NCBI RefSeq assembly: GCF_057098645.1
Contig: NZ_CM169472.1
Strand: one strand, 5' to 3'
Length of the DNA: 64,000 nt
A program made the translations under genes and the position numbers. The notes under the pieces were generated by a model. That model did no database searches and was not told where the DNA came from. It saw only the letters and a list, made by a program, of their open reading frames with translations. Shown piece after piece: positions 34,756-54,830 of the stretch. Positions within the stretch are counted from its first letter, which is position 1; every line of letters begins with the position of its first letter.

Positions 34756-37185
34756 GTGTCGTCGTTGCCCGTTGCTGCCGTCTTACCTGAATTACTTACC
34801 GCTCTCGATTGTGCGCCGCAGGTATTATTAAGTGCGCCGACCGGGGCCGGGAAATCAACCTGGCTGCCGCTGCAACTGCTGGCGCATCCCGGCATTAACG
34901 GGAAAATTATCCTGCTGGAGCCGCGTCGTCTGGCGGCGCGTAACGTCGCGCAACGGCTGGCGGAGCTGCTTAACGAAAAGCCAGGCGATACCGTTGGCTA
35001 CCGGATGCGTGCGCAAAACTGCGTCGGGCCGAATACCCGCCTGGAAGTAGTTACCGAAGGCGTGCTGACGCGGATGATCCAGCGTGACCCGGAACTGAGC
35101 GGTGTTGGATTGGTGATCCTTGATGAATTTCATGAGCGTAGCTTGCAGGCGGATTTGGCGTTTGCGCTGTTACTCGATGTGCAACAAGGTCTGCGTGATG
35201 ACCTTAAACTGCTGATTATGTCGGCTACGCTGGACAACGACCGCTTGCAGCAAATGCTGCCAGAAGCGCCCGTCGTCATCTCAGAAGGGCGCTCGTTTCC
35301 GGTTGAACGCCGTTATTTACCGCTGCCCACGCATCAGCGTTTTGACGATGCCGTTGCGGTAGCCACCGCTGAAATGCTGCGTCAGGAAAGCGGATCATTA
35401 CTGTTATTTTTACCTGGCGTCGGAGAAATTCAGCGTGTGCAGGAACAACTGGCTTCGCGCATCGGCAGTGATGTATTGCTCTGCCCGCTGTATGGCGCGT
35501 TGTCGCTGAACGATCAGCGAAAAGCGATCCTCCCGGCACCGCAAGGGATGCGCAAAGTGGTGCTGGCGACCAATATTGCTGAAACCAGTTTAACCATCGA
35601 AGGTATTCGTCTGGTGGTGGATTGTGCCCAGGAGCGTGTGGCGCGTTTTGATCCGCGCACGGGGCTTACGCGACTGATTACTCAACGCGTTAGCCAGGCA
35701 TCCATGACGCAGCGTGCCGGGCGCGCCGGGCGTCTGGAGCCGGGTATCTGCCTGCATTTAATCGCCAAAGAACAAGCAGAACGCGCTGCCGCGCAAAGTG
35801 AACCGGAGATCTTACAAAATGATCTTTCCGGTTTGCTGATGGAATTACTGCAATGGGGATGCAGCGATCTGGCGCAGATGAGCTGGCTGGATCAACCGCC
35901 AGCAGTGAATTTACTGGCCGCGAAACGCCTGTTAAAGATGCTGGGGGCGCTGGACGGTGAACGGCTTAGTGCGCAGGGGCAAAAAATGGCAGCGCTGGGT
36001 AACGATCCGCGTTTAGCGGCAATGCTGGTTAGCGCAAAGAGCGACGACGAAGCTGCTACCGCGGCAAAAATTGCCGCCATTCTCGAAGAGCCCCCACGGA
36101 TGGGCAATAGTGACCTGGGCGTGGTGTTTTCGCGCAATCAACCAGCCTGGCAGCAACGTAGTCAGCAACTGTTAAAAAGCTTAAACGTACGCGGCGGTGA
36201 GGCAGACAGTTCGCTTATCGTGCCGCTACTTGCCGGGGCTTTTGCCGATCGCATTGCTCGCCGCCGTGGGCAAGATGGTCGCTATCAACTGGCGAACGGC
36301 ATGGGAGCGATGCTCGATGCCGATGACGCGCTAAGCCGCCACGAATGGTTGATCGCACCGTTATTATTGCAGGGCAGCGCCTCGCCGGATGCGCGGATTT
36401 TACTGGCGCTACCGGTCGATATTGATGAATTAGTGCGACGCTGTCCGCAGCTGGTGCAGCAATCTGACACCGTGGAATGGGATGACGCGCAAGGTACACT
36501 GAAAGCCTGGCGTCGGCTGCAAATCGGTCAGTTGGCGGTGAAAGTGCAGCCACTGGCGAAACCGTCAGAAGACGAGTTGCATCAGGCGATGCTTAACGGC
36601 ATCCGTGATAAAGGTTTAAGCGTGCTCAACTGGACGGCGGAAGCGGAACAGCTACGCTTGCGTTTGTTATGCGCCGGAAAGTGGTTGCCAGAATATGACT
36701 GGCCAGCGGTTGATGATGAAAGTTTGTTGGCGACGCTGGAAACGTGGCTGCTGCCACATATGGCCGGTGTACATTCACTACGCGGCCTGAAATCACTCGA
36801 CATTTATCAGGCACTACGCGGATTACTTGATTGGGGAATGCAGCAACGTCTGGATAGTGAATTGCCTGCGCATTACACTGTGCCGACGGGAAGCCGGATC
36901 GCCATTCGTTATCATGAAGATAACCCGCCCGCGCTGGCGGTGAGAATGCAGGAGATGTTTGGTGAGGCCACTAATCCGACGATCGCCCAGGGGCGCGTGC
37001 CGCTGGTGCTGGAATTGCTTTCACCTGCCCAAAGGCCGCTGCAAATCACGCGTGATTTGGGGGCCTTCTGGAAAGGGGCGTATCGTGAGGTGCAAAAAGA
37101 GATGAAAGGGCGTTATCCCAAACACGTCTGGCCGGACGACCCGGCAAACACGGCACCGACGCGACGGACGAAAAAGTATTCGTAA
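34756..37185 (+). CDS. hrpB: ATP-dependent RNA helicase HrpB (DEAH-box)
   Basis: ORF 34711..37185; start refined to the GTG at 34756 (MSSLPVAAVLPELLTALDCAPQVLLSAPTGAGKST...), 809 aa; Walker A GAGKST and DEFH box are present; GGAG Shine-Dalgarno upstream. Confidence 0.9.
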   Translation: MSSLPVAAVLPELLTALDCAPQVLLSAPTGAGKSTWLPLQLLAHPGINGKIILLEPRRLAARNVAQRLAELLNEKPGDTVGYRMRAQNCVGPNTRLEVVTEGVLTRMIQRDPELSGVGLVILDEFHERSLQADLAFALLLDVQQGLRDDLKLLIMSATLDNDRLQQMLPEAPVVISEGRSFPVERRYLPLPTHQRFDDAVAVATAEMLRQESGSLLLFLPGVGEIQRVQEQLASRIGSDVLLCPLYGALSLNDQRKAILPAPQGMRKVVLATNIAETSLTIEGIRLVVDCAQERVARFDPRTGLTRLITQRVSQASMTQRAGRAGRLEPGICLHLIAKEQAERAAAQSEPEILQNDLSGLLMELLQWGCSDLAQMSWLDQPPAVNLLAAKRLLKMLGALDGERLSAQGQKMAALGNDPRLAAMLVSAKSDDEAATAAKIAAILEEPPRMGNSDLGVVFSRNQPAWQQRSQQLLKSLNVRGGEADSSLIVPLLAGAFADRIARRRGQDGRYQLANGMGAMLDADDALSRHEWLIAPLLLQGSASPDARILLALPVDIDELVRRCPQLVQQSDTVEWDDAQGTLKAWRRLQIGQLAVKVQPLAKPSEDELHQAMLNGIRDKGLSVLNWTAEAEQLRLRLLCAGKWLPEYDWPAVDDESLLATLETWLLPHMAGVHSLRGLKSLDIYQALRGLLDWGMQQRLDSELPAHYTVPTGSRIAIRYHEDNPPALAVRMQEMFGEATNPTIAQGRVPLVLELLSPAQRPLQITRDLGAFWKGAYREVQKEMKGRYPKHVWPDDPANTAPTRRTKKYS

Positions 37186-37192
37186 GGTTGGT

Positions 37193-37283
37193 TTTCTCCC
37201 TCTCCCTGTGGGAGAGGGCCGGGGGGAGGGCATCAGCGCGCACGTTCACCCTCACCCTCAAGGGAGAGGGGACCGATCGAGCA
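37193..37283. repeat. GC-rich palindromic intergenic repeat built of CCCTC/GAGGG units (possibly boxC-like)
   Basis: Sequence ttctccctctccctgtgggagagggccggggggagggcatcagcgcgcacgttcaccctcaccctcaagggagaggggaccgatcg contains nested inverted repeats (tctccctctccc / gggagaggg and ccctcaccctc / gggagagggg). Confidence 0.5.
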
Positions 37284-37368
37284 CAAATTTTGAGAGATAT
37301 CTTCTTCTGTCTTGTAACAGAAGAACAGAAAATCGGGCTTTTGCGCCTGAATATTGCGGAGAAAAAGC

Positions 37369-39903
37369 ATGGCCGGGAATGACCGCGAGCCAATTGGACG
37401 CAAAGGGAAACCGACGCGTCCGGTCAAACAAAAGGTAAGCCGTCGTCGTTACGAAGATGACGATGATTACGACGATTATGATGACTATGAGGATGAAGAA
37501 CCGATGCCGCGCAAAGGTAAGGGCAAAGGCAAAGGGCGTAAGCCTCGTGGCAAACGCGGCTGGCTATGGCTGCTGTTAAAACTGGCTATCGTTTTTGCCG
37601 TGCTGATCGCCATTTACGGCGTTTATCTCGATCAAAAAATTCGTAGCCGTATTGATGGCAAGGTCTGGCAACTGCCTGCGGCAGTTTATGGTCGAATGGT
37701 CAACCTTGAGCCAGACATGACCATCAGCAAGAACGAGATGGTGAAGCTGCTGGAGGCAACACAGTATCGTCAGGTGTCGAAAATGACCCGTCCTGGCGAA
37801 TTTACTGTGCAGGCTAACAGCATTGAGATGATCCGCCGTCCGTTTGATTTTCCGGACAGCAAAGAAGGGCAGGTGCGTGCGCGTCTGACCTTTGATGGCG
37901 ATCATCTGGCGACCATCGTCAATATGGAGAACAACCGTCAGTTCGGTTTCTTCCGTCTTGATCCGCGCCTGATCACCATGATCTCCTCACCAAACGGTGA
38001 GCAGCGTTTGTTTGTGCCGCGCAGTGGTTTCCCGGATTTGCTGGTGGATACTTTGCTGGCGACAGAAGACCGCCATTTCTACGAGCATGATGGAATCAGT
38101 CTCTACTCCATCGGACGTGCGGTGCTGGCAAACCTGACAGCCGGACGCACGGTGCAGGGGGCGAGTACGCTGACGCAACAGCTGGTGAAAAACCTGTTCC
38201 TCTCCAGCGAGCGTTCTTACTGGCGTAAAGCGAATGAAGCCTACATGGCGCTGATCATGGACGCGCGTTACAGCAAAGACCGTATTCTTGAGCTGTATAT
38301 GAACGAGGTGTATCTCGGTCAGAGCGGCGACAACGAAATCCGCGGCTTCCCGCTGGCGAGCTTGTATTACTTTGGTCGCCCGGTAGAAGAATTGAGCCTC
38401 GATCAGCAGGCGCTGTTAGTCGGTATGGTGAAAGGAGCGTCCATCTACAACCCGTGGCGTAACCCGAAACTGGCGCTGGAGCGACGTAATCTGGTACTGC
38501 GTCTGCTGCAACAGCAACAGATTATTGATCAAGAACTCTATGACATGTTGAGTGCGCGTCCGCTGGGTGTTCAGCCGCGCGGTGGGGTGATCTCTCCTCA
38601 GCCAGCCTTTATGCAACTGGTGCGTCAGGAGCTTCAGGCTAAATTAGGCGATAAGGTAAAAGATCTCTCCGGCGTGAAGATCTTCACTACCTTTGACTCG
38701 GTGGCCCAGGACGCGGCAGAAAAAGCCGCCGTGGAAGGCATTCCGGCACTTAAGAAACAGCGTAAGCTGAGCGATCTTGAAACTGCGATTGTGGTCGTCG
38801 ACCGCTTTAGTGGTGAAGTTCGTGCGATGGTCGGAGGTTCTGAGCCGCAGTTTGCGGGCTACAACCGTGCGATGCAGGCGCGGCGTTCGATTGGTTCCCT
38901 TGCAAAACCAGCGACTTATCTGACGGCTTTAAGCCAGCCGAAAATCTATCGTCTGAATACGTGGATTGCGGATGCGCCAATCGCGTTACGTCAGCCGAAT
39001 GGCCAGGTCTGGTCACCGCAGAACGATGACCGTCGTTATAGCGAAAGCGGCAGAGTGATGCTGGTGGATGCGTTGACCCGTTCGATGAACGTGCCGACGG
39101 TAAATCTGGGGATGGCGCTGGGGCTGCCTGCGGTTACGGATACCTGGATCAAACTGGGCGTACCGAAAGATCAGTTGCATCCGGTTCCGGCAATGCTGCT
39201 GGGGGCGTTGAACTTAACGCCAATCGAAGTGGCGCAGGCATTCCAGACCATCTCCAGCGGTGGTAACCGTGCACCGCTTTCTGCGCTGCGTTCGGTAATC
39301 GCGGAAGATGGCAAGGTGCTGTATCAGAGCTTCCCGCAGGCAGAACGCGCTGTTCCGGCACAGGCGGCGTATCTGACACTATGGACCATGCAGCAGGTGG
39401 TACAACGTGGTACGGGTCGTCAGCTTGGGGCGAAATACCCGAACCTGCATCTGGCAGGGAAAACAGGGACTACCAACAATAACGTAGATACCTGGTTTGC
39501 GGGCATTGACGGCAGCACGGTGACCATCACCTGGGTCGGCCGTGATAACAACCAGCCGACCAAACTGTATGGTGCCAGCGGGGCAATGTCGATTTATCAG
39601 CGTTATCTGGCTAACCAGACGCCAACGCCGCTGAATCTTGTTCCGCCAGAAGATATTGCAGATATGGGCGTGGACTACGACGGCAACTTTGTTTGCAGCG
39701 GTGGCATGCGTGTCTTGCCGGTCTGGACCAGCGATCCGCAATCGCTGTGCCAGCAGAGTGAGATGCAGCAGCAGCCGTCAGGCAATCCGTTTGATCAGTC
39801 TTCACAGCCGCAGCAACAGCCGCAACAGCAACCTGCTCAGCAAGAGCAGAAAGACAGCGACGGTGTAGCCGGTTGGATCAAGGATATGTTTGGTAGTAAT
39901 TAA
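37369..39903 (+). CDS. mrcB: Penicillin-binding protein 1B (bifunctional glycosyltransferase/transpeptidase)
   Basis: ORF 37354..39903 (first codon TTG); start refined to the ATG at 37369 ([22 protein letters not shown]...), 844 aa; acidic/basic N-terminal tail, transmembrane helix, and the transpeptidase SxxK-type motifs. Confidence 0.95.
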
Positions 39904-40065
39904 CGTCTAAACGTGACATACCGGATGGCGAGTTGCCATCCGGTAAAATAACATCCCATCTAAAATATTAACCCTTTCTTTTCATCTGGTTGTTTATTAA
40001 CCCTTCAGGAACGCTCAGATTGCGTACCGCTTGCGAACCCGCCAGCGTTTCGAATATTATCTTAT

Positions 40066-40086
40066 ATTTATAATAATCATTCTCGT
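40066..40086 (+). promoter_or_regulatory. Fur box overlapping the fhuA promoter -10
   Basis: tttataataatcattctcg resembles the Fur consensus GATAATGATAATCATTATC; it includes TATAAT at 40069-40074, about 50 bp upstream of the fhuA start. Confidence 0.55.
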
Positions 40087-40122
40087 TTACGTTATCATTC
40101 ACTTTACATCAGAGATATACCA

Positions 40123-42372
40123 ATGGCGCGTTCCAAAACTGCTCAGCCAAAACACTCACTGCGTAAAATCGCAGTTGTAGTAGCCACAGCGGTTAGCGGC
40201 ATGTCTGTTTATGCACAGGCAGCGGTTGAACCGAAAGAAGACACTATCACCGTTACCGCTGCACCTGCGCCGCAAGAAAGCGCATGGGGGCCTGCTGCAA
40301 CTATTGCGGCGCGACAGTCAGCTACCGGCACTAAAACCGATACGCCGATTCAAAAAGTGCCACAGTCTATTTCTGTTGTGACCGCCGAAGAGATGGCGCT
40401 GCATCAGCCGAAGTCGGTAAAAGAAGCGCTTAGCTACACTCCTGGCGTTGCCGTGGGAACTCGTGGCGCATCCAACACTTACGATTACCTGATCATCCGC
40501 GGATTCGCCGCTGACGGCCAAAGCCAGAACAACTATCTGAATGGCCTGAAGATGCAGGGCAACTTCTATAACGATGCGGTTATTGACCCATATATGCTGG
40601 AGCGCGCTGAAATCATGCGTGGCCCGGTTTCCGTGCTGTACGGGAAAAGCAGCCCAGGTGGCCTGTTGAACATGGTCAGCAAGCGCCCGACCACTGAACC
40701 GTTGAAAGAAGTTCAGTTTAAGGCCGGGACTGACAGCCTGTTCCAGACCGGTTTTGACTTCAGCGATGCGCTGGATGATGACGGCGTTTACTCTTATCGT
40801 CTGACCGGTCTTGCGCGCTCTGCCAATGCCCAGCAAAAGGGCGCGGAAGAGCAGCGTTATGCCATTGCGCCAGCGTTTACCTGGCGTCCGGACGATAAAA
40901 CCAATTTCACCTTCCTTTCTTACTTCCAGAACGAGCCGGAAACCGGTTATTACGGCTGGTTGCCGAAAGAGGGAACCGTTGAGCCGCTGCCGAATGGTAA
41001 GCGTCTGCCGACAGACTTTAACGAAGGGGCGAAGAACAACACCTATTCTCGTAATGAGAAGATGATTGGCTATAGCTTCGACCACGAATTTAACGACACC
41101 TTTACCGTACGTCAGAACCTTCGCTTTGCGCAAAATAAAGTTTCGCAAAAGAGCGTATATGGCTACGGCATGTGTTCAGATCCTCTCTATTCCTCAAACC
41201 CCTCTTCGAGTCCATGTGCCAACGTGCCGCAGTCTCAATGGGGCCATACACTGACTCGTCAGTACGTTATCGATAATGAGAAGTTAGAAAACTTCTCTGT
41301 TGATACTCAGTTGCAAAGCAAATTCGCAACCGGTTCAGTGGATCACACTCTGCTGACTGGCGTTGACTTTATGCGTATGCGTAATGACATCGACTCCTGG
41401 TTCGGATATGCCGGTTCAGTTGCACCATCTGATATCTATAATTTAGACCGTAGTGACTTTGATTTTGGCGCTCACCCAAATCCGTCTGGTCCATACCGCG
41501 TTCTGCTGAAACAGAAACAAACCGGTCTGTATGTTCAGGATCAGGCGCAGTGGGATAAAGTGCTGGTTACGCTTGGCGGTCGCTATGACTGGGCCGATCA
41601 GTCATCTTTCAACCGTGATTACGGTAATAAATCCGATCGCGATGATAAACAGTTCACCTGGCGTGGCGGTGTTAACTATCTGTTCGACAACGGCGTAACG
41701 CCTTATTTCAGCTACAGTGAATCGTTTGAACCCGCTTCGCAGACCGATGCAAACGGCGATCTGTTTGCACCTTCGAAAGGCAAACAGTATGAAGTCGGCG
41801 TGAAATATGTGCCAGAAGATCGCCCAATTGTGGTGACTGGCGCACTGTATCAGCTTACCAAAACTAATAACCTGATGGCGGATCCGAACGGTTCACTGTT
41901 CTCGGTTGAAGGCGGTGAGATTCGTGCGCGTGGCGTAGAGCTGGAAGCGAAAGCGGCACTATCGGCGAGTGTTAACGTAGTCGGTTCTTACACCTACACC
42001 GACGCGGAATATACCACTGACACCAACTACAAAGGCAATACGCCTGCACAGGTGCCAAAACACATGGCTTCGCTGTGGGCTGACTATACCTTCTTTGACG
42101 GTCCGCTTTCAGGTCTGACGCTGGGCACCGGTGGTCGTTATACTGGCTCCAGCTATGGTGATCCGGCTAACTCCTTTAAAGTGGGAAGTTATACGGTCGT
42201 GGATGCGTTAGTGCGTTATGATCTGGCGCGAGTCGGCATGGCTGGCTCCAACGTGGCGCTGCATGTTAACAACCTGTTCGATCGTGAATACGTCGCCAGC
42301 TGCTTTAACACTTATGGCTGCTTCTGGGGCGCAGAACGTCAGGTCGTTGCAACCGCAACCTTCCGTTTCTAA
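40123..42372 (+). CDS. fhuA: Ferrichrome outer-membrane transporter (TonB-dependent receptor; phage/colicin receptor)
   Basis: 749-aa ORF MARSKTAQPKHSLRKIAVVVATAVSGMSVYAQAAVEPKEDTITVTAAP... with the TonB box DTITV and C-terminal ATFRF; the barrel matches E. coli FhuA but several surface-loop segments differ from the K-12 sequence as I recall it. Confidence 0.95.
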   Translation: MARSKTAQPKHSLRKIAVVVATAVSGMSVYAQAAVEPKEDTITVTAAPAPQESAWGPAATIAARQSATGTKTDTPIQKVPQSISVVTAEEMALHQPKSVKEALSYTPGVAVGTRGASNTYDYLIIRGFAADGQSQNNYLNGLKMQGNFYNDAVIDPYMLERAEIMRGPVSVLYGKSSPGGLLNMVSKRPTTEPLKEVQFKAGTDSLFQTGFDFSDALDDDGVYSYRLTGLARSANAQQKGAEEQRYAIAPAFTWRPDDKTNFTFLSYFQNEPETGYYGWLPKEGTVEPLPNGKRLPTDFNEGAKNNTYSRNEKMIGYSFDHEFNDTFTVRQNLRFAQNKVSQKSVYGYGMCSDPLYSSNPSSSPCANVPQSQWGHTLTRQYVIDNEKLENFSVDTQLQSKFATGSVDHTLLTGVDFMRMRNDIDSWFGYAGSVAPSDIYNLDRSDFDFGAHPNPSGPYRVLLKQKQTGLYVQDQAQWDKVLVTLGGRYDWADQSSFNRDYGNKSDRDDKQFTWRGGVNYLFDNGVTPYFSYSESFEPASQTDANGDLFAPSKGKQYEVGVKYVPEDRPIVVTGALYQLTKTNNLMADPNGSLFSVEGGEIRARGVELEAKAALSASVNVVGSYTYTDAEYTTDTNYKGNTPAQVPKHMASLWADYTFFDGPLSGLTLGTGGRYTGSSYGDPANSFKVGSYTVVDALVRYDLARVGMAGSNVALHVNNLFDREYVASCFNTYGCFWGAERQVVATATFRF

Positions 42373-42422
42373 TTTCTCTTTTGGGGCACGGATTTCCGTG
42401 CCCATTTCACAAGTTGGCTGTT

Positions 42423-43220
42423 ATGCAGGAATACACGAATCATTCCGATACCACTTTTGCACTGCGTAATATCTCCTTTCGTGTGCCCGGGCGCACGCTT
42501 TTGCATCCGCTGTCGTTAACCTTTCCTGCCGGGAAAGTGACCGGTCTGATTGGTCACAACGGTTCTGGTAAATCCACTCTGCTCAAAATGCTTGGCCGTC
42601 ATCAGCCTCCGTCAGAAGGGGAGATTCTTCTTGATGCCCAGCCGCTGGAAAGCTGGAGCAGCAAAGCGTTCGCCCGCAAAGTGGCTTATTTGTCGCAGCA
42701 GCTTCCTCCGGCAGAAGGGATGACCGTGCGTGAACTGGTGGCGATTGGTCGTTACCCGTGGCATGGCGCACTAGGGCGCTTTGGTGCGGCAGATCGCGAA
42801 AAAGTTGAGGAAGCTATCTCGCTGGTTGGCTTAAAACCGCTGGCGCATCGGCTGGTCGATAGTCTCTCTGGCGGTGAGCGTCAGCGGGCGTGGATCGCCA
42901 TGCTGGTGGCGCAGGATAGCCGTTGTCTGTTGCTCGACGAACCGACCTCGGCGTTGGATATCGCCCACCAGGTTGATGTGCTGGCGCTGGTGCACCGTTT
43001 AAGTCAGGAACGTGGCCTGACGGTCATTGCCGTGCTGCACGATATCAATATGGCGGCACGCTACTGTGATTATCTGGTCGCCTTGCGCGGCGGTGAAATG
43101 ATTGCTCAGGGAACGCCTGCGGAAATTATGCGCGGCGATACCCTCGAAATGATTTATGGCATCCCGATGGGTATTTTGCCGCATCCGGCGGGTGCTGCAC
43201 CTGTGAGTTTTGTTTATTGA
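42423..43220 (+). CDS. fhuC: Iron(III)-hydroxamate ABC transporter ATP-binding protein
   Basis: ORF 42381..43220; start refined to the ATG at 42423 (MQEYTNHSDTTFALRNISFRVPGRTLL...), 265 aa; Walker A GHNGSGKST and signature LSGGERQR. Confidence 0.95.
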   Translation: MQEYTNHSDTTFALRNISFRVPGRTLLHPLSLTFPAGKVTGLIGHNGSGKSTLLKMLGRHQPPSEGEILLDAQPLESWSSKAFARKVAYLSQQLPPAEGMTVRELVAIGRYPWHGALGRFGAADREKVEEAISLVGLKPLAHRLVDSLSGGERQRAWIAMLVAQDSRCLLLDEPTSALDIAHQVDVLALVHRLSQERGLTVIAVLHDINMAARYCDYLVALRGGEMIAQGTPAEIMRGDTLEMIYGIPMGILPHPAGAAPVSFVY

Positions 43221-44110
43221 TGAGCGGCTTACCTCTTATTTCGCGCCGTCGACTGTTAACGGCGATGGCGCTTTCTCCGTTGTTATGGCAGATGAATACC
43301 GCCCACGCGGCGGCTATTGATCCCAATCGTATTGTGGCGCTGGAGTGGTTGCCGGTGGAATTACTGCTGGCGCTCGGCATCGTGCCTTATGGCGTGGCGG
43401 ACACCATCAACTATCGCCTGTGGGTTAGCGAACCACCGTTACCTGAATCGGTGATTGACGTCGGTTTGCGCACAGAACCTAACCTTGAACTGCTGACCGA
43501 AATGAAACCGTCGTTTATGGTCTGGTCGGCAGGATATGGCCCTTCACCAGAAATGCTGGCACGCATTGCGCCGGGGCGCGGATTTAACTTCAGCGATGGC
43601 AAACAGCCGCTGGCGATGGCGCGTAAATCGCTGACGGAAATGGCAGATTTACTTAATCTGCAAAGCGCAGCCGAAACGTATTTAGCGCAATACGAAGACT
43701 TTATCCGCAGCATGAAACCCCGCTTTGTGAAGCGTGGTGCACGCCCGTTACTGCTGACGACGCTTATCGATCCGCGCCATATGTTGGTCTTCGGGCCAAA
43801 CAGCTTGTTCCAGGAAATTCTCGATGAGTACGGCATCCCAAATGCCTGGCAAGGGGAAACCAACTTCTGGGGCAGCACCGCCGTCAGTATCGATCGTCTG
43901 GCGGCGTATAAAGACGTTGATGTGCTGTGTTTTGATCATGACAACAGCAAGGAGATGGACGCGCTATTGGCAACCCCGCTGTGGCAGGCCATGCCGTTTG
44001 TCCGTGCAGGACGTTTTCAGCGCGTTCCGGCGGTCTGGTTCTATGGCGCGACGCTTTCGGCAATGCACTTTGTGCGTATTCTGGATAACGCCATCGGAGG
44101 TAAAGCGTGA
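43220..44110 (+). CDS. fhuD: Iron(III)-hydroxamate periplasmic binding protein
   Basis: ORF 43217..44110; the ATG at 43220 gives MSGLPLISRRRLLTAMALSPLLWQMNTAHA (Tat-like signal), 296 aa; its start overlaps the fhuC stop by 1 nt. Confidence 0.93.
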   Translation: MSGLPLISRRRLLTAMALSPLLWQMNTAHAAAIDPNRIVALEWLPVELLLALGIVPYGVADTINYRLWVSEPPLPESVIDVGLRTEPNLELLTEMKPSFMVWSAGYGPSPEMLARIAPGRGFNFSDGKQPLAMARKSLTEMADLLNLQSAAETYLAQYEDFIRSMKPRFVKRGARPLLLTTLIDPRHMLVFGPNSLFQEILDEYGIPNAWQGETNFWGSTAVSIDRLAAYKDVDVLCFDHDNSKEMDALLATPLWQAMPFVRAGRFQRVPAVWFYGATLSAMHFVRILDNAIGGKA

Positions 44111-46089
44111 GTAAACGAATTGCGCTTTTCCCGGCGTTATTGCTGGCGCTGCTGGTGATTGTCGCTACGGCGCTGACCTGGATGAACTTTTCGCAGGCGC
44201 TGCCGCGTAGCCAGTGGGCGCAGGCCGCCTGGTCGCCGGATATTAACGTCATCGAGCAGATGATTTTTCACTACAGCTTGTTACCGCGTCTGGCGATTTC
44301 GCTGCTGGTGGGCGCGGGCCTGGGGCTGGTGGGCGTGCTGTTTCAGCAAGTGCTGCGTAACCCGCTGGCGGAACCGACGACGTTGGGCGTTGCTACAGGC
44401 GCGCAACTGGGGATTACCGTCACGACGCTCTGGGCGATCCCTGGTGCGATGGCGAGCCAGTTTGCTGCGCTGGCAGGGGCTTGTGTTGTTGGCTTAATTG
44501 TCTTTGGCGTCGCGTGGGGGAAACGGCTGTCGCCGGTAACGCTGATTCTCGCGGGGTTGGTAGTGAGCCTTTATTGCGGGGCAATTAATCAGCTACTGGT
44601 TATCTTCCATCATGACCAACTGCAAAGCATGTTTCTGTGGAGCACTGGAACGCTGACGCAAACCGACTGGGGCGGCGTTGAGCGTTTATGGCCGCAGCTG
44701 CTGGGCGGCGTGATGCTGACGTTATTGCTACTTCGCCCGTTAACCCTGATGGGGCTTGATGATGGCGTGGCGCGCAATCTCGGGCTGGCCTTGTCGCTCG
44801 CGCGTCTGGCGGCGCTGTCGCTGGCGATAGTCATCAGTGCGCTGCTGGTGAATGCGGTGGGGATTATCGGCTTTATCGGGTTGTTCGCGCCGTTGCTGGC
44901 AAAAATGCTGGGGGCGCGGCGTCTGCTGCCACGGCTGATGCTGGCGTCGCTGATTGGGGCGCTGATCCTCTGGCTTTCCGATCAAATCATTCTCTGGCTA
45001 ACCCGCGTGTGGATGGAAGTTTCTACCGGTTCGGTCACTGCGTTGATCGGTGCGCCGCTGCTACTGTGGCTGCTGCCGCGTTTACGCAGCATTAGCGCGC
45101 CGGATATGAAGGTCAACGATCGTGTCGCGACTGAACGCCAACATGTGCTGGCGTTTGCCCTCGCGGGCGGCGTGCTGCTGTTGATGGCTGTGGTGGTGGC
45201 GCTGTCGTTTGGTCGTGATGCGCACGGCTGGACGTGGGCGAGCGGGGCGTTGCTCGATGATTTAATGCCCTGGCGCTGGCCGCGAATTATGGCGGCGCTA
45301 TTTGCGGGCGTCATGCTGGCGGTGGCGGGCTGTATTATTCAGCGACTGACCGGCAACCCGATGGCAAGCCCGGAAGTGCTGGGGATTAGCTCCGGCGCAG
45401 CGTTTGGCGTGGTACTGATGCTGTTTCTGGTACCGGGTAATGCTTTTGGCTGGCTGTTACCCGCGGGAAGTATCGGTGCCGCGGTGACGCTGTTGATTAT
45501 TATGATCGCCGCCGGGCGCGGTGGATTTTCCCCACACCGCATGTTACTGGCGGGGATGGCGTTAAGTACCGCATTCACCATGCTTTTAATGATGTTGCAG
45601 GCGAGTGGTGACCCGCGAATGGCGCAGGTGCTCACCTGGATCTCTGGTTCGACCTACAACGCCACCGATGCGCAGGTCTGGCGCACCGGAATTGTGATGG
45701 TGATTTTGCTGGCGATTACCCCGCTGTGCCGCCGCTGGCTGACCATTTTACCGCTGGGTGGTGATACCGCACGGGCCGTGGGGTTGGCGTTAACGCCGAC
45801 GCGAATTGCGCTGCTGCTGTTAGCGGCCTGTCTGACGGCGACCGCGACGATGACCATTGGACCGTTGAGTTTTGTTGGTTTAATGGCACCGCATATCGCG
45901 CGGATGATGGGCTTTCGACGGACGATGCCGCACATCGTGATTTCGGCGCTGGTGGGTGGTTTACTGCTGGTGTTCGCTGACTGGTGTGGGCGGATGGTGC
46001 TGTTTCCGTTCCAGATCCCGGCGGGGCTGCTGTCGACCTTTATCGGCGCGCCATATTTTATCTATTTGTTGAGAAAGCAGAGCCGTTAA
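44107..46089 (+). CDS. fhuB: Iron(III)-hydroxamate ABC transporter permease (fused double permease)
   Basis: 660-aa hydrophobic ORF MSKRIALFPALLLALLVIVATALTW... starting at GTG and overlapping the fhuD stop by 4 nt (GTGA); two homologous halves typical of FhuB. Confidence 0.95.
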   Translation: MSKRIALFPALLLALLVIVATALTWMNFSQALPRSQWAQAAWSPDINVIEQMIFHYSLLPRLAISLLVGAGLGLVGVLFQQVLRNPLAEPTTLGVATGAQLGITVTTLWAIPGAMASQFAALAGACVVGLIVFGVAWGKRLSPVTLILAGLVVSLYCGAINQLLVIFHHDQLQSMFLWSTGTLTQTDWGGVERLWPQLLGGVMLTLLLLRPLTLMGLDDGVARNLGLALSLARLAALSLAIVISALLVNAVGIIGFIGLFAPLLAKMLGARRLLPRLMLASLIGALILWLSDQIILWLTRVWMEVSTGSVTALIGAPLLLWLLPRLRSISAPDMKVNDRVATERQHVLAFALAGGVLLLMAVVVALSFGRDAHGWTWASGALLDDLMPWRWPRIMAALFAGVMLAVAGCIIQRLTGNPMASPEVLGISSGAAFGVVLMLFLVPGNAFGWLLPAGSIGAAVTLLIIMIAAGRGGFSPHRMLLAGMALSTAFTMLLMMLQASGDPRMAQVLTWISGSTYNATDAQVWRTGIVMVILLAITPLCRRWLTILPLGGDTARAVGLALTPTRIALLLLAACLTATATMTIGPLSFVGLMAPHIARMMGFRRTMPHIVISALVGGLLLVFADWCGRMVLFPFQIPAGLLSTFIGAPYFIYLLRKQSR

Positions 46090-53360: not shown

Positions 53361-53405
53361 AGAACACAGCAATTTTGCGTTATCTGTTAATCGAGACTGA
53401 AATAC

Positions 53406-54830
53406 ATGAAAAAAACCACATTAGCACTGAGTGCACTGGCTCTGAGTTTAGGTTTGGCGTTATCTCCGCTCTCTGCAACGGCGGCTGAGACTTCTTCAGC
53501 AACGACAGCCCAGCAGATGCCAAGCCTTGCACCGATGCTCGAAAAGGTGATGCCTTCAGTGGTCAGCATTAACGTAGAAGGTAGCACAACCGTTAATACG
53601 CCGCGTATGCCGCGTAATTTCCAGCAGTTCTTCGGTGATGATTCTCCGTTCTGCCAGGAAGGTTCTCCGTTCCAGAGCTCTCCGTTCTGCCAGGGCGGCC
53701 AGGGCGGTAATGGTGGCGGCCAGCAACAGAAATTCATGGCGCTGGGTTCCGGCGTCATCATTGATGCCGATAAAGGCTATGTCGTCACCAACAACCACGT
53801 TGTTGATAACGCGACGGTCATTAAAGTTCAACTGAGCGATGGCCGTAAGTTCGACGCGAAGATGGTTGGCAAAGATCCGCGCTCTGATATCGCGTTGATC
53901 CAAATCCAGAACCCGAAAAACCTGACCGCAATTAAGATGGCGGATTCTGATGCACTGCGCGTGGGTGATTACACCGTAGCGATTGGTAACCCGTTTGGTT
54001 TGGGCGAGACGGTAACTTCCGGGATTGTCTCTGCGCTGGGGCGTAGCGGCCTGAATGCCGAAAACTACGAAAACTTCATCCAGACCGATGCAGCGATCAA
54101 CCGTGGTAACTCCGGTGGTGCGCTGGTTAACCTGAACGGTGAACTGATCGGTATCAACACCGCGATCCTCGCACCGGACGGCGGCAACATCGGTATCGGT
54201 TTTGCTATCCCGAGCAACATGGTGAAAAACCTGACCTCGCAGATGGTGGAATACGGCCAGGTGAAACGCGGTGAGCTGGGTATTATGGGGACTGAGCTGA
54301 ACTCCGAACTGGCGAAAGCGATGAAAGTTGACGCCCAGCGCGGTGCTTTCGTAAGCCAGGTTCTGCCTAACTCCTCCGCTGCAAAAGCGGGCATTAAAGC
54401 GGGGGATGTGATCACCTCACTGAACGGTAAGCCGATCAGCAGCTTTGCCGCACTGCGTGCTCAGGTGGGTACTATGCCGGTGGGCAGCAAACTGACCCTG
54501 GGCTTACTGCGCGACGGTAAGCAGGTTAACGTGAACCTGGAACTGCAGCAGAGCAGCCAGAATCAGGTTGATTCCAGCTCCATCTTCAACGGCATTGAAG
54601 GCGCTGAGATGAGCAACAAAGGCAAAGATCAGGGCGTGGTAGTGAACAACGTGAAAACGGGCACTCCGGCTGCGCAGATCGGCCTGAAGAAAGGTGATGT
54701 GATTATTGGCGCGAACCAGCAGGCAGTGAAAAACATCGCTGAACTGCGTAAAGTTCTCGACAGCAAACCGTCTGTGCTGGCACTGAACATTCAGCGCGGC
54801 GACAGCACCATCTACCTGTTAATGCAGTAA
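53406..54830 (+). CDS. degP: Periplasmic serine endoprotease/chaperone DegP (HtrA)
   Basis: 474-aa ORF with signal peptide MKKTTLALSALALSLGLALSPLSATA, catalytic GNSGGAL motif and two C-terminal PDZ domains. Confidence 0.96.
   Translation: MKKTTLALSALALSLGLALSPLSATAAETSSATTAQQMPSLAPMLEKVMPSVVSINVEGSTTVNTPRMPRNFQQFFGDDSPFCQEGSPFQSSPFCQGGQGGNGGGQQQKFMALGSGVIIDADKGYVVTNNHVVDNATVIKVQLSDGRKFDAKMVGKDPRSDIALIQIQNPKNLTAIKMADSDALRVGDYTVAIGNPFGLGETVTSGIVSALGRSGLNAENYENFIQTDAAINRGNSGGALVNLNGELIGINTAILAPDGGNIGIGFAIPSNMVKNLTSQMVEYGQVKRGELGIMGTELNSELAKAMKVDAQRGAFVSQVLPNSSAAKAGIKAGDVITSLNGKPISSFAALRAQVGTMPVGSKLTLGLLRDGKQVNVNLELQQSSQNQVDSSSIFNGIEGAEMSNKGKDQGVVVNNVKTGTPAAQIGLKKGDVIIGANQQAVKNIAELRKVLDSKPSVLALNIQRGDSTIYLLMQ

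Follow-up and report, generated by a model that had tools for sequence, protein, structure and literature searches.

Apparent E2-type fhuA allele carried as a recombination patch in an O157:H7-like chromosomal background

Introduction

FhuA is the terminal receptor for T1-, T5-, phi80- and SO1-like siphophages as well as that of colicin M, of microcin J25 and of albomycin. To our knowledge, nearly all structural and functional work on this protein has been done on the K-12 type. The window analyzed here, a stretch of 64,000 nucleotides of contig NZ_CM169472.1 (assembly GCF_057098645.1), contains an fhuA gene which a preliminary description, made from the letters alone, regarded as a conserved barrel with several replaced surface loops, of the kind that diversifying selection for phage and colicin resistance would produce. 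This raises the question of where these loops come from and which process keeps them in the population.

Results and Discussion

Gene Identity and Predicted Transport Function

The gene under study is the following:
40123-42372, + strand: fhuA coding sequence (open reading frame); the precursor has 749 aa and comprises a 33-aa signal peptide, a plug domain and a 22-strand barrel

It is located in the order mrcB-fhuA-fhuC-fhuD-fhuB and its nucleotide sequence shows 100% identity with the fhuA gene of E. coli O145 RM9872 (protein WP_000124397.1). The protein matched the NCBIfam FhuA equivalog NF007465 over its full length with 1452.6 bits (cut-off 803), and Pfam assigned a Plug domain to aa 76-180 and a TonB_dep_Rec_b-barrel domain to aa 254-718. 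The TonB box DTITV (mature residues 7-11) and the residues F115, Y116, Y244 and W246, whose roles have been described (PMC9586334, PMC10373560), are the same as in K-12. All four cysteines, and with them both disulphides, are kept. R81, G99, Q100, Y313, Y315 and F391, which we take to be ferrichrome-contact residues, are also shared with K-12. K344 of K-12 is replaced by Q; a role of this residue at the ferrichrome site is assumed here with some uncertainty. F702, initially considered as a further ferrichrome-site residue, was dropped, since K-12 FhuA has A702 at this position. A consensus scan upstream of fhuA allowing up to three mismatches yielded no Fur box. As the plug and the TonB box are conserved, along with the residues contacting ferrichrome and the part of the barrel embedded in the membrane, the protein is predicted to be a functional ferrichrome transporter.

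Loop Differences From the K-12 Protein

Aligned with K-12 FhuA, the protein differs by 74 replaced or deleted positions and a three-residue insertion, L4 being three residues longer and L5 one residue shorter. Sequence identity is 90%, and the plug-and-barrel fold is common to both (1BY3, 2FCP, 8A8C, 8A60, 8B14; Foldseek TM 0.67-0.75 for the AlphaFold2 model), with the solved FhuA chains being 88-90% identical in the alignment. The differing loop segments are:
41173-41247, + strand: extracellular loop L4 (aa 351-375, CSDPLYSSNPSSSPCANVPQSQWGH; alignment and AF2), disulphide loop three residues longer than in K-12
41407-41484, + strand: extracellular loop L5 (aa 429-454), 16 of 26 K-12 positions differ, including a one-residue deletion
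41602-41637, + strand: tip of the beta11-L6-beta12 hairpin (aa 494-505, SSFNRDYGNKSD), 8 replacements relative to K-12
41731-41772, + strand: extracellular loop L7 (aa 537-550), 7 replacements relative to K-12
41881-41901, + strand: L8 tip, DPNGSLF instead of DPEGSFF in K-12 (E554N, F557L)

The three peptides quoted in the preliminary description, namely MCSDPLYSSNPSSSPCANVPQSQWGHTLTRQY (aa 350-381, nt 41170-41265), GYAGSVAPSDIYNLDRSDFDFGAHPNPSGPYRVLL (aa 428-462, nt 41404-41508) and DQSSFNRDYGNKSDRDD (aa 492-508, nt 41596-41646), are all present and each differs from K-12 as claimed. The K-12 counterparts given there proved exact when aligned with the solved K-12 chains and a K-12-type genome, and the Cys-Cys loop is indeed three residues longer, with 13 residues between the cysteines compared to 10 in K-12. 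The interval given for the divergence, 41160-41770, spans L4 to L7 (codons 347-549) and is one base out of frame. The preliminary description missed the changes in L7 and L8 as well as the full reach of the divergent DNA, which covers approximately 40440-42030. In the literature, K-12 L4 has been delimited to residues 318-339 by a loop-deletion design and K-12 EL7 to Glu501-Ser516 (PMC9586334), 7 of these 16 residues differing in the protein studied here, while an indel at the beta11-L6-beta12 position was assigned to L6 by Wang et al. (2018).

The quoted segments are thus not identical to K-12, and the pairwise alignment places the changes predominantly in surface loops rather than in barrel strands, as had been proposed: replacements affect 45 of the 132 residues in loops compared to 28 of 582 residues outside them (Fisher p = 2e-18, odds ratio 10.2). 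Of the 70 changes within residues 300-640, the well-modelled part of the barrel, 63 are extracellular, i.e., in loops L4-L9 and in extracellular strand extensions according to AlphaFold2 secondary structure; six of the remaining changes are conservative and fall into membrane-embedded strand halves, taken by a heuristic of our own as the stretch within 10 residues of a periplasmic turn, and one falls into a periplasmic turn. The AlphaFold2 model has a mean pLDDT of 52.9, is weak beyond residues ~300-660 with an unmodelled plug (values below 50), reaches 65-87 only at residues ~300-580, and was used solely for strand and loop calls in the central barrel. Of the 73 replacements, 49 are found in blocks with hypervariability throughout the family.

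Phage and Colicin Contacts of the Divergent Loops

Published work places contacts of T5 pb5, T1, phi80 and colicin M on loops L4, L5, L7 and L8 (PMC9586334, PMC10373560, PMC8469651), which supports the link to phage and colicin ligands drawn in the preliminary description. L8 is reported to be essential for T5, phi80 and SO1-like phages, with F557 proposed as a key residue (PMC10373560). Other residues occupy the positions of F557 and Y325 of K-12 FhuA here, both of which have been suggested to be important when phages dock. Single-loop deletions other than that of L8 had modest effects on T5, and the T5 pb5-FhuA interface is described as resilient, as FhuA of Salmonella bongori still supports T5 infection despite changed contact residues (PMC9586334). 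Since this interface tolerates changes, the allele may not confer resistance to T5. The literature searched contained no phage tests on natural FhuA alleles, and such alleles were not mentioned in the BASEL phage paper.

A Bounded Patch With Mosaic Structure

Comparison with other E. coli genomes revealed the following segments:
40345-41976, + strand: recombination patch with the E2-type core, edges between the informative sites 40344/40440 (left) and 41961/41977 (right)
41977-42030, + strand: short stretch unlike O157:H7, IAI39 and 042, from the listed difference positions
41165-41235, + strand: L4-tip cassette, a unit which E2-type alleles exchange separately, from the comparison with strain U013

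At sites informative between O157:H7 and IAI39, the window agrees with O157:H7 in the flanks, upstream of the patch included, and with IAI39 at 273 of 275 consecutive sites (40440-41961). Inside the patch it differs from IAI39 at only five positions, compared to several hundred from O157:H7 (319 over 39800-42700), and it is 99.7% identical to IAI39 and 042. Embedded in chromosomal surroundings that resemble O157:H7, the gene therefore carries a patch of ~1.5-1.6 kb (roughly 40345-41976) with almost the same sequence as in IAI39 and 042, and divergence is limited to fhuA. The short stretch at 41977-42030 suggests an additional piece of the mosaic that came from a third source. On a smaller scale, the L4-tip cassette differs from that of U013 by 28 nucleotides and a 9-nt indel, whereas the next 350 nt contain only about two differences. 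The alternative L4 tip (TKD..ALKASPC) is also found in Escherichia sp. E1V33, and related variants occur in Kosakonia S29 and UBA3516. Strain SX48 represents a natural intragenic fhuA recombinant.

Distribution and Age of the Allele Type

The divergent region is present with at least 90% identity in ~1,067 of 5,426 complete E. coli genomes (about 20%). The L4 tip was detected by blastn in 619 of these 5,426 genomes, ST131 among them; the 55 genomes returned by megablast for the 81-nt L4-tip query are an undercount caused by its 28-nt word requirement, and the blastn count was used. The E2 loop set is also carried by ST131, O145:H28, IAI39 and 042. In a scan with one representative genome per species, E2-type loops were found in Citrobacter, Enterobacter, Lelliottia, Leclercia, Kosakonia, Atlantibacter and others, and in Citrobacter, Enterobacter and Lelliottia both E1 and E2 occur side by side. 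The protein encoded by the variable segment is 86-89% identical to Citrobacter, Enterobacter and Lelliottia compared to 73% to K-12. At the nucleotide level, the best match outside Escherichia reaches only 80% identity.

Synonymous sites are saturated relative to K-12 over the central ~1.6 kb, barrel strands included, and nearly unchanged at the gene ends and in fhuC: for aa 340-560, pS was 0.70 and pN 0.17, whereas pS reached only 0.04 at the ends of the gene and 0.07 in fhuC. Between genera but within the E2 type, pS amounted to 0.62-0.72 (0.51-0.64 in fhuC), and against Escherichia sp. E1V33 to 0.30 (0.22 in fhuC). A dN/dS above 1, the sign of positive selection, was not observed in the comparison by region that the preliminary description had suggested, the ratio being below 1 in every analysis window and at most <0.2 relative to K-12 in these pairwise Nei-Gojobori counts, which do not represent a site model. 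Loop pN/pS was 0.35 when the types were compared with each other, with dS at saturation, and 0.02-0.03 inside a type, so that among alleles of one class loops and strands are constrained to the same degree and the loops are under purifying selection.

In a tree of loop codons, the E1/E2 split was recovered in 99 of 100 bootstraps and Escherichia was monophyletic in none of 100, whereas it was monophyletic in 100 of 100 bootstraps of the gene-end tree; the non-loop codons of the central segment gave an ambiguous tree. As described for trans-species polymorphisms, alleles group by type, and within-type pS between species is not below species divergence. The synonymous-site comparison indicates an E1/E2 split no younger than the genus splits, an age estimate which derives from a pS no lower than between genera together with pN, and not from a calibrated date. 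As the central non-loop tree is ambiguous, an old lateral transfer of loop cassettes is hard to separate cleanly from an ancient polymorphism.

Origin and Maintenance of the Loop Set

We consider it likely that the gene carries an old E2-type loop set, which was recombined into an O157:H7-like background and is maintained by phage and colicin selection while transport is kept. On this explanation, the E2 type was not made in this lineage but is part of an allele class no younger than the enterobacterial genus split; in E. coli as well as in other genera it coexists with E1, the type of K-12, and with E3 and E4, which have short loops. Homologous recombination spreads it in the form of kilobase patches and loop-tip cassettes. 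The classes might persist because T1-, T5-, phi80- and SO1-like phages, colicin M and microcins recognize the loops, so that rare receptor types would be favored (negative frequency-dependent selection), while purifying selection would preserve each type together with its transport function. Selection by phages or colicins on the loops of this allele is plausible. Taken together, the saturated pS, the low dN/dS, the recurrence in other genera and the bounded patch suggest that any selection on the receptor surface maintains and shuffles old discrete alleles rather than generating fresh substitutions.

Among the alternatives, it might be assumed that no receptor-directed selection is involved and that the loops are weakly constrained, the classes being shaped by drift and recombination or by hitch-hiking. 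A dN/dS that never exceeds 1 and the tolerance of T5 binding toward many changes would be compatible with this explanation. However, loops that are conserved as strongly as strands within type (pN/pS 0.02-0.03) are not weakly constrained, and neutral alleles would be expected neither to persist at a pS of 0.7 where flanking genes differ by 0.04-0.07 nor to recur as the same discrete types across several genera. We therefore regard this explanation as improbable.

It is very unlikely that the E2 core was imported into E. coli recently from another genus such as Citrobacter. Post-speciation exchange was favored by Wang et al. (2018), and the variable segment of the protein is, as stated above, closer to Citrobacter, Enterobacter and Lelliottia than to K-12. 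A recent Citrobacter origin was nevertheless rejected on synonymous divergence: the best non-Escherichia match in the scan of one representative genome per species, at 80% nucleotide identity, corresponds to a pS of 0.62-0.72, which is at least as large as the fhuC divergence in the same genome pairs, and E2 divergence within Escherichia tracks that of the flanks, as seen for E1V33. In addition, the class is already established in about a fifth of E. coli genomes.

The least tenable explanation, to which we assign next to no probability, is that recent positive selection replaced the loops of a K-12-like gene in this lineage by point mutations and small indels: the replacements do cluster in loops binding phages and colicin M, and fhuA is listed as positively selected in E. 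coli by Chen (2006) and Petersen (2007), as cited in Wang et al. and Chen et al., but pS is saturated in strands and loops alike over ~1.6 kb and close to zero at the gene ends, the same loop sequences are present in other genera, the patch matches IAI39 and 042 within a different genomic background, and the pN/pS values, below 1 throughout and very low in loops within type, led to the rejection of positive selection in situ. The loop-replacement reading of the preliminary description thus holds with respect to divergent segments located on the surface loops of a conserved barrel, whereas its recent diversifying selection on a K-12-like gene is at odds with the saturated pS, the low dN/dS, the other genera and the bounded patch.

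For the preferred explanation of an old, recombined and maintained E2 loop set, ferrichrome transport would be expected to be normal, while phages requiring L4, L5, L7 or L8 would be expected to meet an altered sensitivity, with the L4-dependent T1 being the phage most likely affected. A further-reaching reading, which we put forward tentatively and hold to be possible rather than probable, is that E1 and E2 form a trans-generic balanced polymorphism that predates the splits of Escherichia, Citrobacter and Enterobacter and is kept by phage- and colicin-driven negative frequency-dependent selection, and not by post-speciation exchange. If this were true, the E2 set would confer a predictable, type-specific host range of FhuA-dependent phages, e.g., resistance to L4-dependent T1-like phages. 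The loop type of a strain should affect phage host range as well as the design of phage cocktails, Innolysins and siderophore-conjugated drugs, and the allele type described here is that of major pathogen lineages (ST131, O145:H28, 042).

Comparison With Published FhuA Classes

The FhuA clusters E1-E4, their loop mapping and mosaic recombination have been reported by Wang et al. (2018; Infect Immun 86:e00573-18; bioRxiv 10.1101/320069) and likewise by Chen et al. (2022, 2025; PMC12175518). The allele, the location of its loops and its mosaic origin are therefore already published and do not constitute a new discovery. Matched by described features and not by a strain table, the allele appears to belong to cluster E2 of Wang et al. 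(2018). Like E2, it has an L4 insertion relative to E1, with a long L4 and L5 present, and plug, TonB box and strands are conserved in both; an alignment with representatives of all four classes showed neither the L6/L7 insertions of E3 nor the L3/L10 insertions of E4. O145:H28 is among the serotypes with a conserved fhuA allele (Wang et al., 2018). Two differences to that study concern the origin of the classes. While Wang et al. (2018) proposed post-speciation exchange between genera, the pS values obtained here point to an old E1/E2 split and against a recent inter-genus transfer, and while no E2 partner in another genus was reported there, E2-type loops were found here in several genera.

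The allele also fits the scheme of Chen et al. (2022, 2025), in which discrete and limited loop types (HVRs) are recombined on a conserved scaffold and for which FhuA is the founding example (PMC12175518). In their 39-strain catalogue, L4 (HVR3) is given with three types, namely PANAYSKQCAALAPADK, PLYTKDQEALKASPCLSIPQSQW and a deletion (PMC12175518). The L4 tip of the window, PLYSSNPSSSPCANVPQSQW, is absent from this HVR3 list as given for the 39 strains, yet it occurs in the 619 complete genomes mentioned above. Probably it corresponds to one of the "new HVR3 types" that Chen et al. mention for a larger genome set.

The fhuA gene and its product

The locus under study encodes the ferrichrome transporter FhuA, which also serves as receptor for phages T1, T5 and phi80 and for colicin M.

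40123-42372, plus strand: fhuA, 749 amino acids

It is flanked by mrcB on the upstream side and by fhuC, fhuD and fhuB on the downstream side, and shows 100% nucleotide identity with the gene of E. coli O145 str. RM9872 whose product, WP_000124397.1, is annotated "ferrichrome porin FhuA". With 1452.6 bits the protein exceeds the cut-off (803) of the NCBIfam FhuA equivalog; Pfam assigns it a Plug and a TonB-dependent-receptor barrel domain, and it could be aligned end to end with the solved K-12 FhuA chains. It agrees with K-12 in the TonB box, in F115, Y116, Y244 and W246, and in all four cysteines. fhuA is an iron-regulated gene. The AT-rich mrcB-fhuA intergenic region (39904-40122, GC about 0.42) contains a sigma-70-like site at 40031-40060; a search with the 19-nt Fur box consensus, allowing up to three mismatches, yielded no match in this region, the sole match in the window being located at 2882-2900. 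In the window and in K-12, mrcB occupies the place which in the B2-type strains U12A (locus L004, 1-2781) and E2348/69 (locus L008, 1-4780) is taken by a fimbrial chaperone/usher/subunit operon directly 5′ of fhuA. Two Rfam matches above the gathering score were also observed in the window:

53366-53411, plus strand: HtrA 5′-UTR thermometer, 77 bits
62282-62368, plus strand: t44 sRNA, 82.9 bits

Differences from K-12 FhuA are concentrated in the extracellular loops

The preliminary description had reported extracellular loops divergent from K-12 at 41160-41770 and proposed diversifying selection. All three peptides quoted there were found (aa 350-381, 428-462, and 492-508), and the K-12 sequences it gave for comparison turned out to be exact when aligned to the solved K-12 chains and a K-12-type genome. 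The Cys-Cys loop is indeed three residues longer (13 residues between the cysteines, 10 in K-12), and the reported interval, its frame off by one base, spans codons 347-549. Over the whole protein, 74 K-12 positions carry a replacement or a deletion, and there are three inserted residues; among the changes are previously overlooked ones in L7 (S503A, V506T, G507D, K508A, D509N, N511D, I512L) and L8 (E554N, F557L).

The boundaries of L3, L4, and L5 were taken from the Endriss deletion design (via Lewis et al., 2023, verified against the Lewis primers) and those of EL7 (501-516) and EL8 (546-564) from van den Berg et al. (2022; PMC9586334), while L6 (455-472) is our own estimate; with these, 45 of 132 loop residues differ versus 28 of 582 residues outside (odds ratio 10.2, Fisher p = 2e-18). 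The 70 changes within residues 300-640 were additionally sorted by the secondary structure of an AlphaFold2 model built from 32 enterobacterial FhuA sequences (TM 0.67-0.75 to solved FhuA; pLDDT 65-87 at residues ~300-580; plug poorly modelled).

Changes relative to K-12 within residues 300-640, by structural element of the AlphaFold2 model
Extracellular loops: 43 changes, 86 residues
Extracellular strand extensions: 20 changes, 113 residues
Membrane-embedded strand halves: 6 changes, 120 residues, all conservative (V/I/L, N/Q)
Periplasmic turn: 1 change, 22 residues

Across 75 enterobacterial FhuA sequences, hypervariable or indel blocks lie at 204-209, 259-262, 317-338, 395-427, 457-472, 503-513, 553-560, and 642-650 (K-12 mature numbering), and 49 of the 73 differences between window and K-12 fall inside them. 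Since the segments are neither identical to K-12 nor are the changes placed in strands instead of loops, the two outcomes named beforehand as refuting it, the original observation stands.

The window allele belongs to a common class in E. coli

Identities to the window fhuA form discrete classes across complete E. coli genomes, and alignment of representatives recovered the clusters E1-E4 of Wang et al. (2018). By its described features the window allele was assigned to E2, its L4 being longer than in E1 (the K-12 type) and the indels of E3/E4 (the short-loop types) being absent. For the 611-nt region of the reported loop divergence, identity reached at least 90% in approximately 1,067 of 5,426 genomes.

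Complete E. coli genomes by nucleotide identity to the window
Whole gene, ≥99%: 53
Whole gene, 95-99%: 630
Whole gene, 90-95%: 483
Whole gene, 80-90% (K-12 type): 3,695
Whole gene, 60-80% (short-loop types): 563
611-nt region, ≥99%: 55
611-nt region, 95-99%: 830
611-nt region, 90-95%: 182
611-nt region, ~76% (K-12 type): 3,667

The identical 611-nt segment occurs in O145:H28 strains, IAI39 and CE10, and the copy of strain 042 is 99.8% identical. An L4 tip at least 90% identical to that of the window is present in 619 of the 5,426 genomes, O25b:H4-ST131 among them, and an alternative, longer tip in 267. In NEB 5-alpha the laboratory allele fhuA2 showed up as a gene interrupted by an IS4-like insertion. 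Plasmid-labelled records accounted for three of the fhuA matches; one of these records, 655 kb long, is probably a chromosomal fragment.

The central part of fhuA is a recombination patch

In a codon-wise comparison with K-12, synonymous divergence is about zero at the gene ends (40123-40390 and 42050-42372), 0.3-0.7 at about 40390-40880 and 41900-42040, low once more near 40885-41000, and saturated (>1 or not computable) at ~41050-41900, in strands and loops alike. The divergence is limited to fhuA, mrcB and fhuCDB being 93-100% identical. The window fhuA is an old allele rather than a gene edited locally. Two fhuD/fhuB stretches (43423-44172 and 44923-45072) show 89-95% identity to K-12 and other strains, moderately below that of the surrounding genes.

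The 26 kb around fhuA were compared with O157:H7 FRIK944, IAI39, and 042, with sites taken as informative where O157:H7 and IAI39 differ. At 36036-40344 (hrpB, mrcB and the 5′ end of fhuA) the window sides with O157:H7, and at 40440-41961 it equals IAI39 at 273 of 275 consecutive informative sites. This switch indicates that the E2 core, the central segment carrying the alternative loops, is a homologous-recombination patch of ~1.5-1.6 kb (precursor codons ~106-613) in an O157:H7-like chromosome. Within the patch there are five differences to IAI39 and several hundred to O157:H7 (319 over 39800-42700), and the core shares very recent common ancestry with the IAI39 and 042 copies. Near the 3′ edge, positions 41977-42030 are unlike O157:H7, IAI39 and 042, which suggests a third donor; further downstream the informative sites are mixed between O157:H7 and IAI39, suggesting additional recombination within the operon. 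Compared to strain U013, the window has 28 differences and a 9-nt indel in 41165-41235 (L4 tip), followed by 350 nt with about two differences, and strain SX48 carries a 5′ part nearer to the window joined to a K-12-type core.

FhuA types are shared between genera

Amino acids 330-560 were used to scan a single genome of each bacterial species. The best matches were exactly as long as the window segment, whereas K-12-length relatives (for example E. whittamii and Salmonella arizonae) were just 72-74% identical.

Protein identity to the window, aa 330-560
Escherichia sp. E1V33: 93%
Citrobacter sp. Awk4: 89%
Enterobacter vonholyi: 87%
C. amalonaticus, C. sedlakii: 87%
Intestinirhabdus, Lelliottia: 87%
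Leclercia sp. UBA7405: 86%

When the 75 FhuA sequences were typed by variable segment, E1, E2, and E3 were each present in several genera, with E1 and E2 both occurring within Citrobacter, Enterobacter, and Lelliottia; FhuC, unlike the FhuA type, tracks species.

Synonymous/non-synonymous divergence (pS/pN) of the variable segment, and pS of fhuC
Window vs K-12 (same species, other type): 0.70/0.172; fhuC 0.07
Window vs Citrobacter Awk4 (same type): 0.66/0.080; fhuC 0.57
Window vs C. amalonaticus (same type): 0.68/0.087; fhuC 0.54
K-12 vs Citrobacter NCU1 (same type): 0.61/0.068; fhuC 0.57
K-12 vs S. arizonae (same type): 0.62/0.074; fhuC 0.56
Citrobacter Awk4 vs NCU1 (same genus, other type): 0.53/0.127; fhuC 0.17

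In neighbour-joining bootstraps, Escherichia was monophyletic in 100/100 for the gene ends; for the loop codons of the central segment E1 was separated from E2 (with C. freundii) in 99/100 and Escherichia monophyly was recovered in 0/100, while the non-loop codons gave an ambiguous tree. Neither the pS comparison nor the bootstraps, at one genome scanned per species, gave a sign of recent inter-genus import, and together they argue that E1 and E2 separated no later than the genera did, a bound and not a date, because saturation of the synonymous sites prevents real dating. A very old transfer of loop cassettes may have taken place.

In four species representatives (loci L014, L042, L057, and L087) fhuA looks disrupted, namely in Intestinirhabdus alba (frameshift near aa 117), C. 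amalonaticus AUH_CA_2023_1 (frameshift near aa 240), Enterobacter sp. EA-1 (many frame changes), and Escherichia sp. MOD1-EC7003 (early stop), which could reflect receptor loss or assembly errors.

Selection on the loops and their ligands

Between types, pN is 0.296 for the loops and 0.068 for the other codons of the central segment, its ratio to pS staying below 1. Within a type, loops are as constrained as strands (loop pN/pS 0.02 for window vs U12A, 0.03 for K-12 vs E. whittamii), with which relaxed loop constraint does not fit; the same applies to ongoing diversification by point mutation. With dN/dS against K-12 below 0.2 in all 30-codon windows of fhuA as well, the proposed diversifying replacement of loops by new substitutions is contradicted, although the loop divergence itself was described correctly and the original interpretation finds partial support. 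The pattern fits a few stable functional surface types, long kept and reshuffled by recombination.

Published contact and dependence sites suggest the ligands of the loops as a plausible selective agent. T5 pb5 touches every loop but EL1-3, with hydrogen bonds mostly to EL4, EL5, and EL8 (PMC9586334), and in a second T5 pb5-FhuA structure the interface takes in 64 residues, located in loops 4-11 and in strands 7-12. T1 depends on L4, and T5, phi80 and SO1-like phages on L8 (PMC10373560); colicin M requires L3, L7, and L8 (PMC8469651). Y325 and F557, proposed as docking residues, are S and L in the window protein. Since the T5 interface has been called resilient, and since T5 sensitivity across a small panel of strains did not follow from the FhuA sequence alone, a resistance phenotype of this allele is only a prediction.

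Relation to known FhuA types

This form of a well-studied receptor is a natural allele that is common and has been described before. The clusters E1-E4 and S1/S2 were established by Wang et al. (2018), who placed indels at the apexes of L3, L4, L5, L6, L7, and L10, reported that E2 has an insertion in L4, and put forward local recombination together with escape from phages. Chen et al. (2022, 2025) extended this to outer-membrane proteins in general under the name "mosaic evolution" and drew up a catalogue of hypervariable-region types for FhuA. The window L4 type, PLYSSNPSSSPCANVPQSQW, is absent from the 39-strain catalogue of HVR3, the L4 hypervariable region (PMC12175518, Data set S1). Since ST131 and O145:H28 carry this allele, its phenotype is a reasonable subject for experiment. 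To the known picture this study adds the precise limits of the patch in this genome, the finding that many other genera have E2-type loops, the synonymous-site case against recent inter-genus exchange, and a common L4 type missing from that catalogue.
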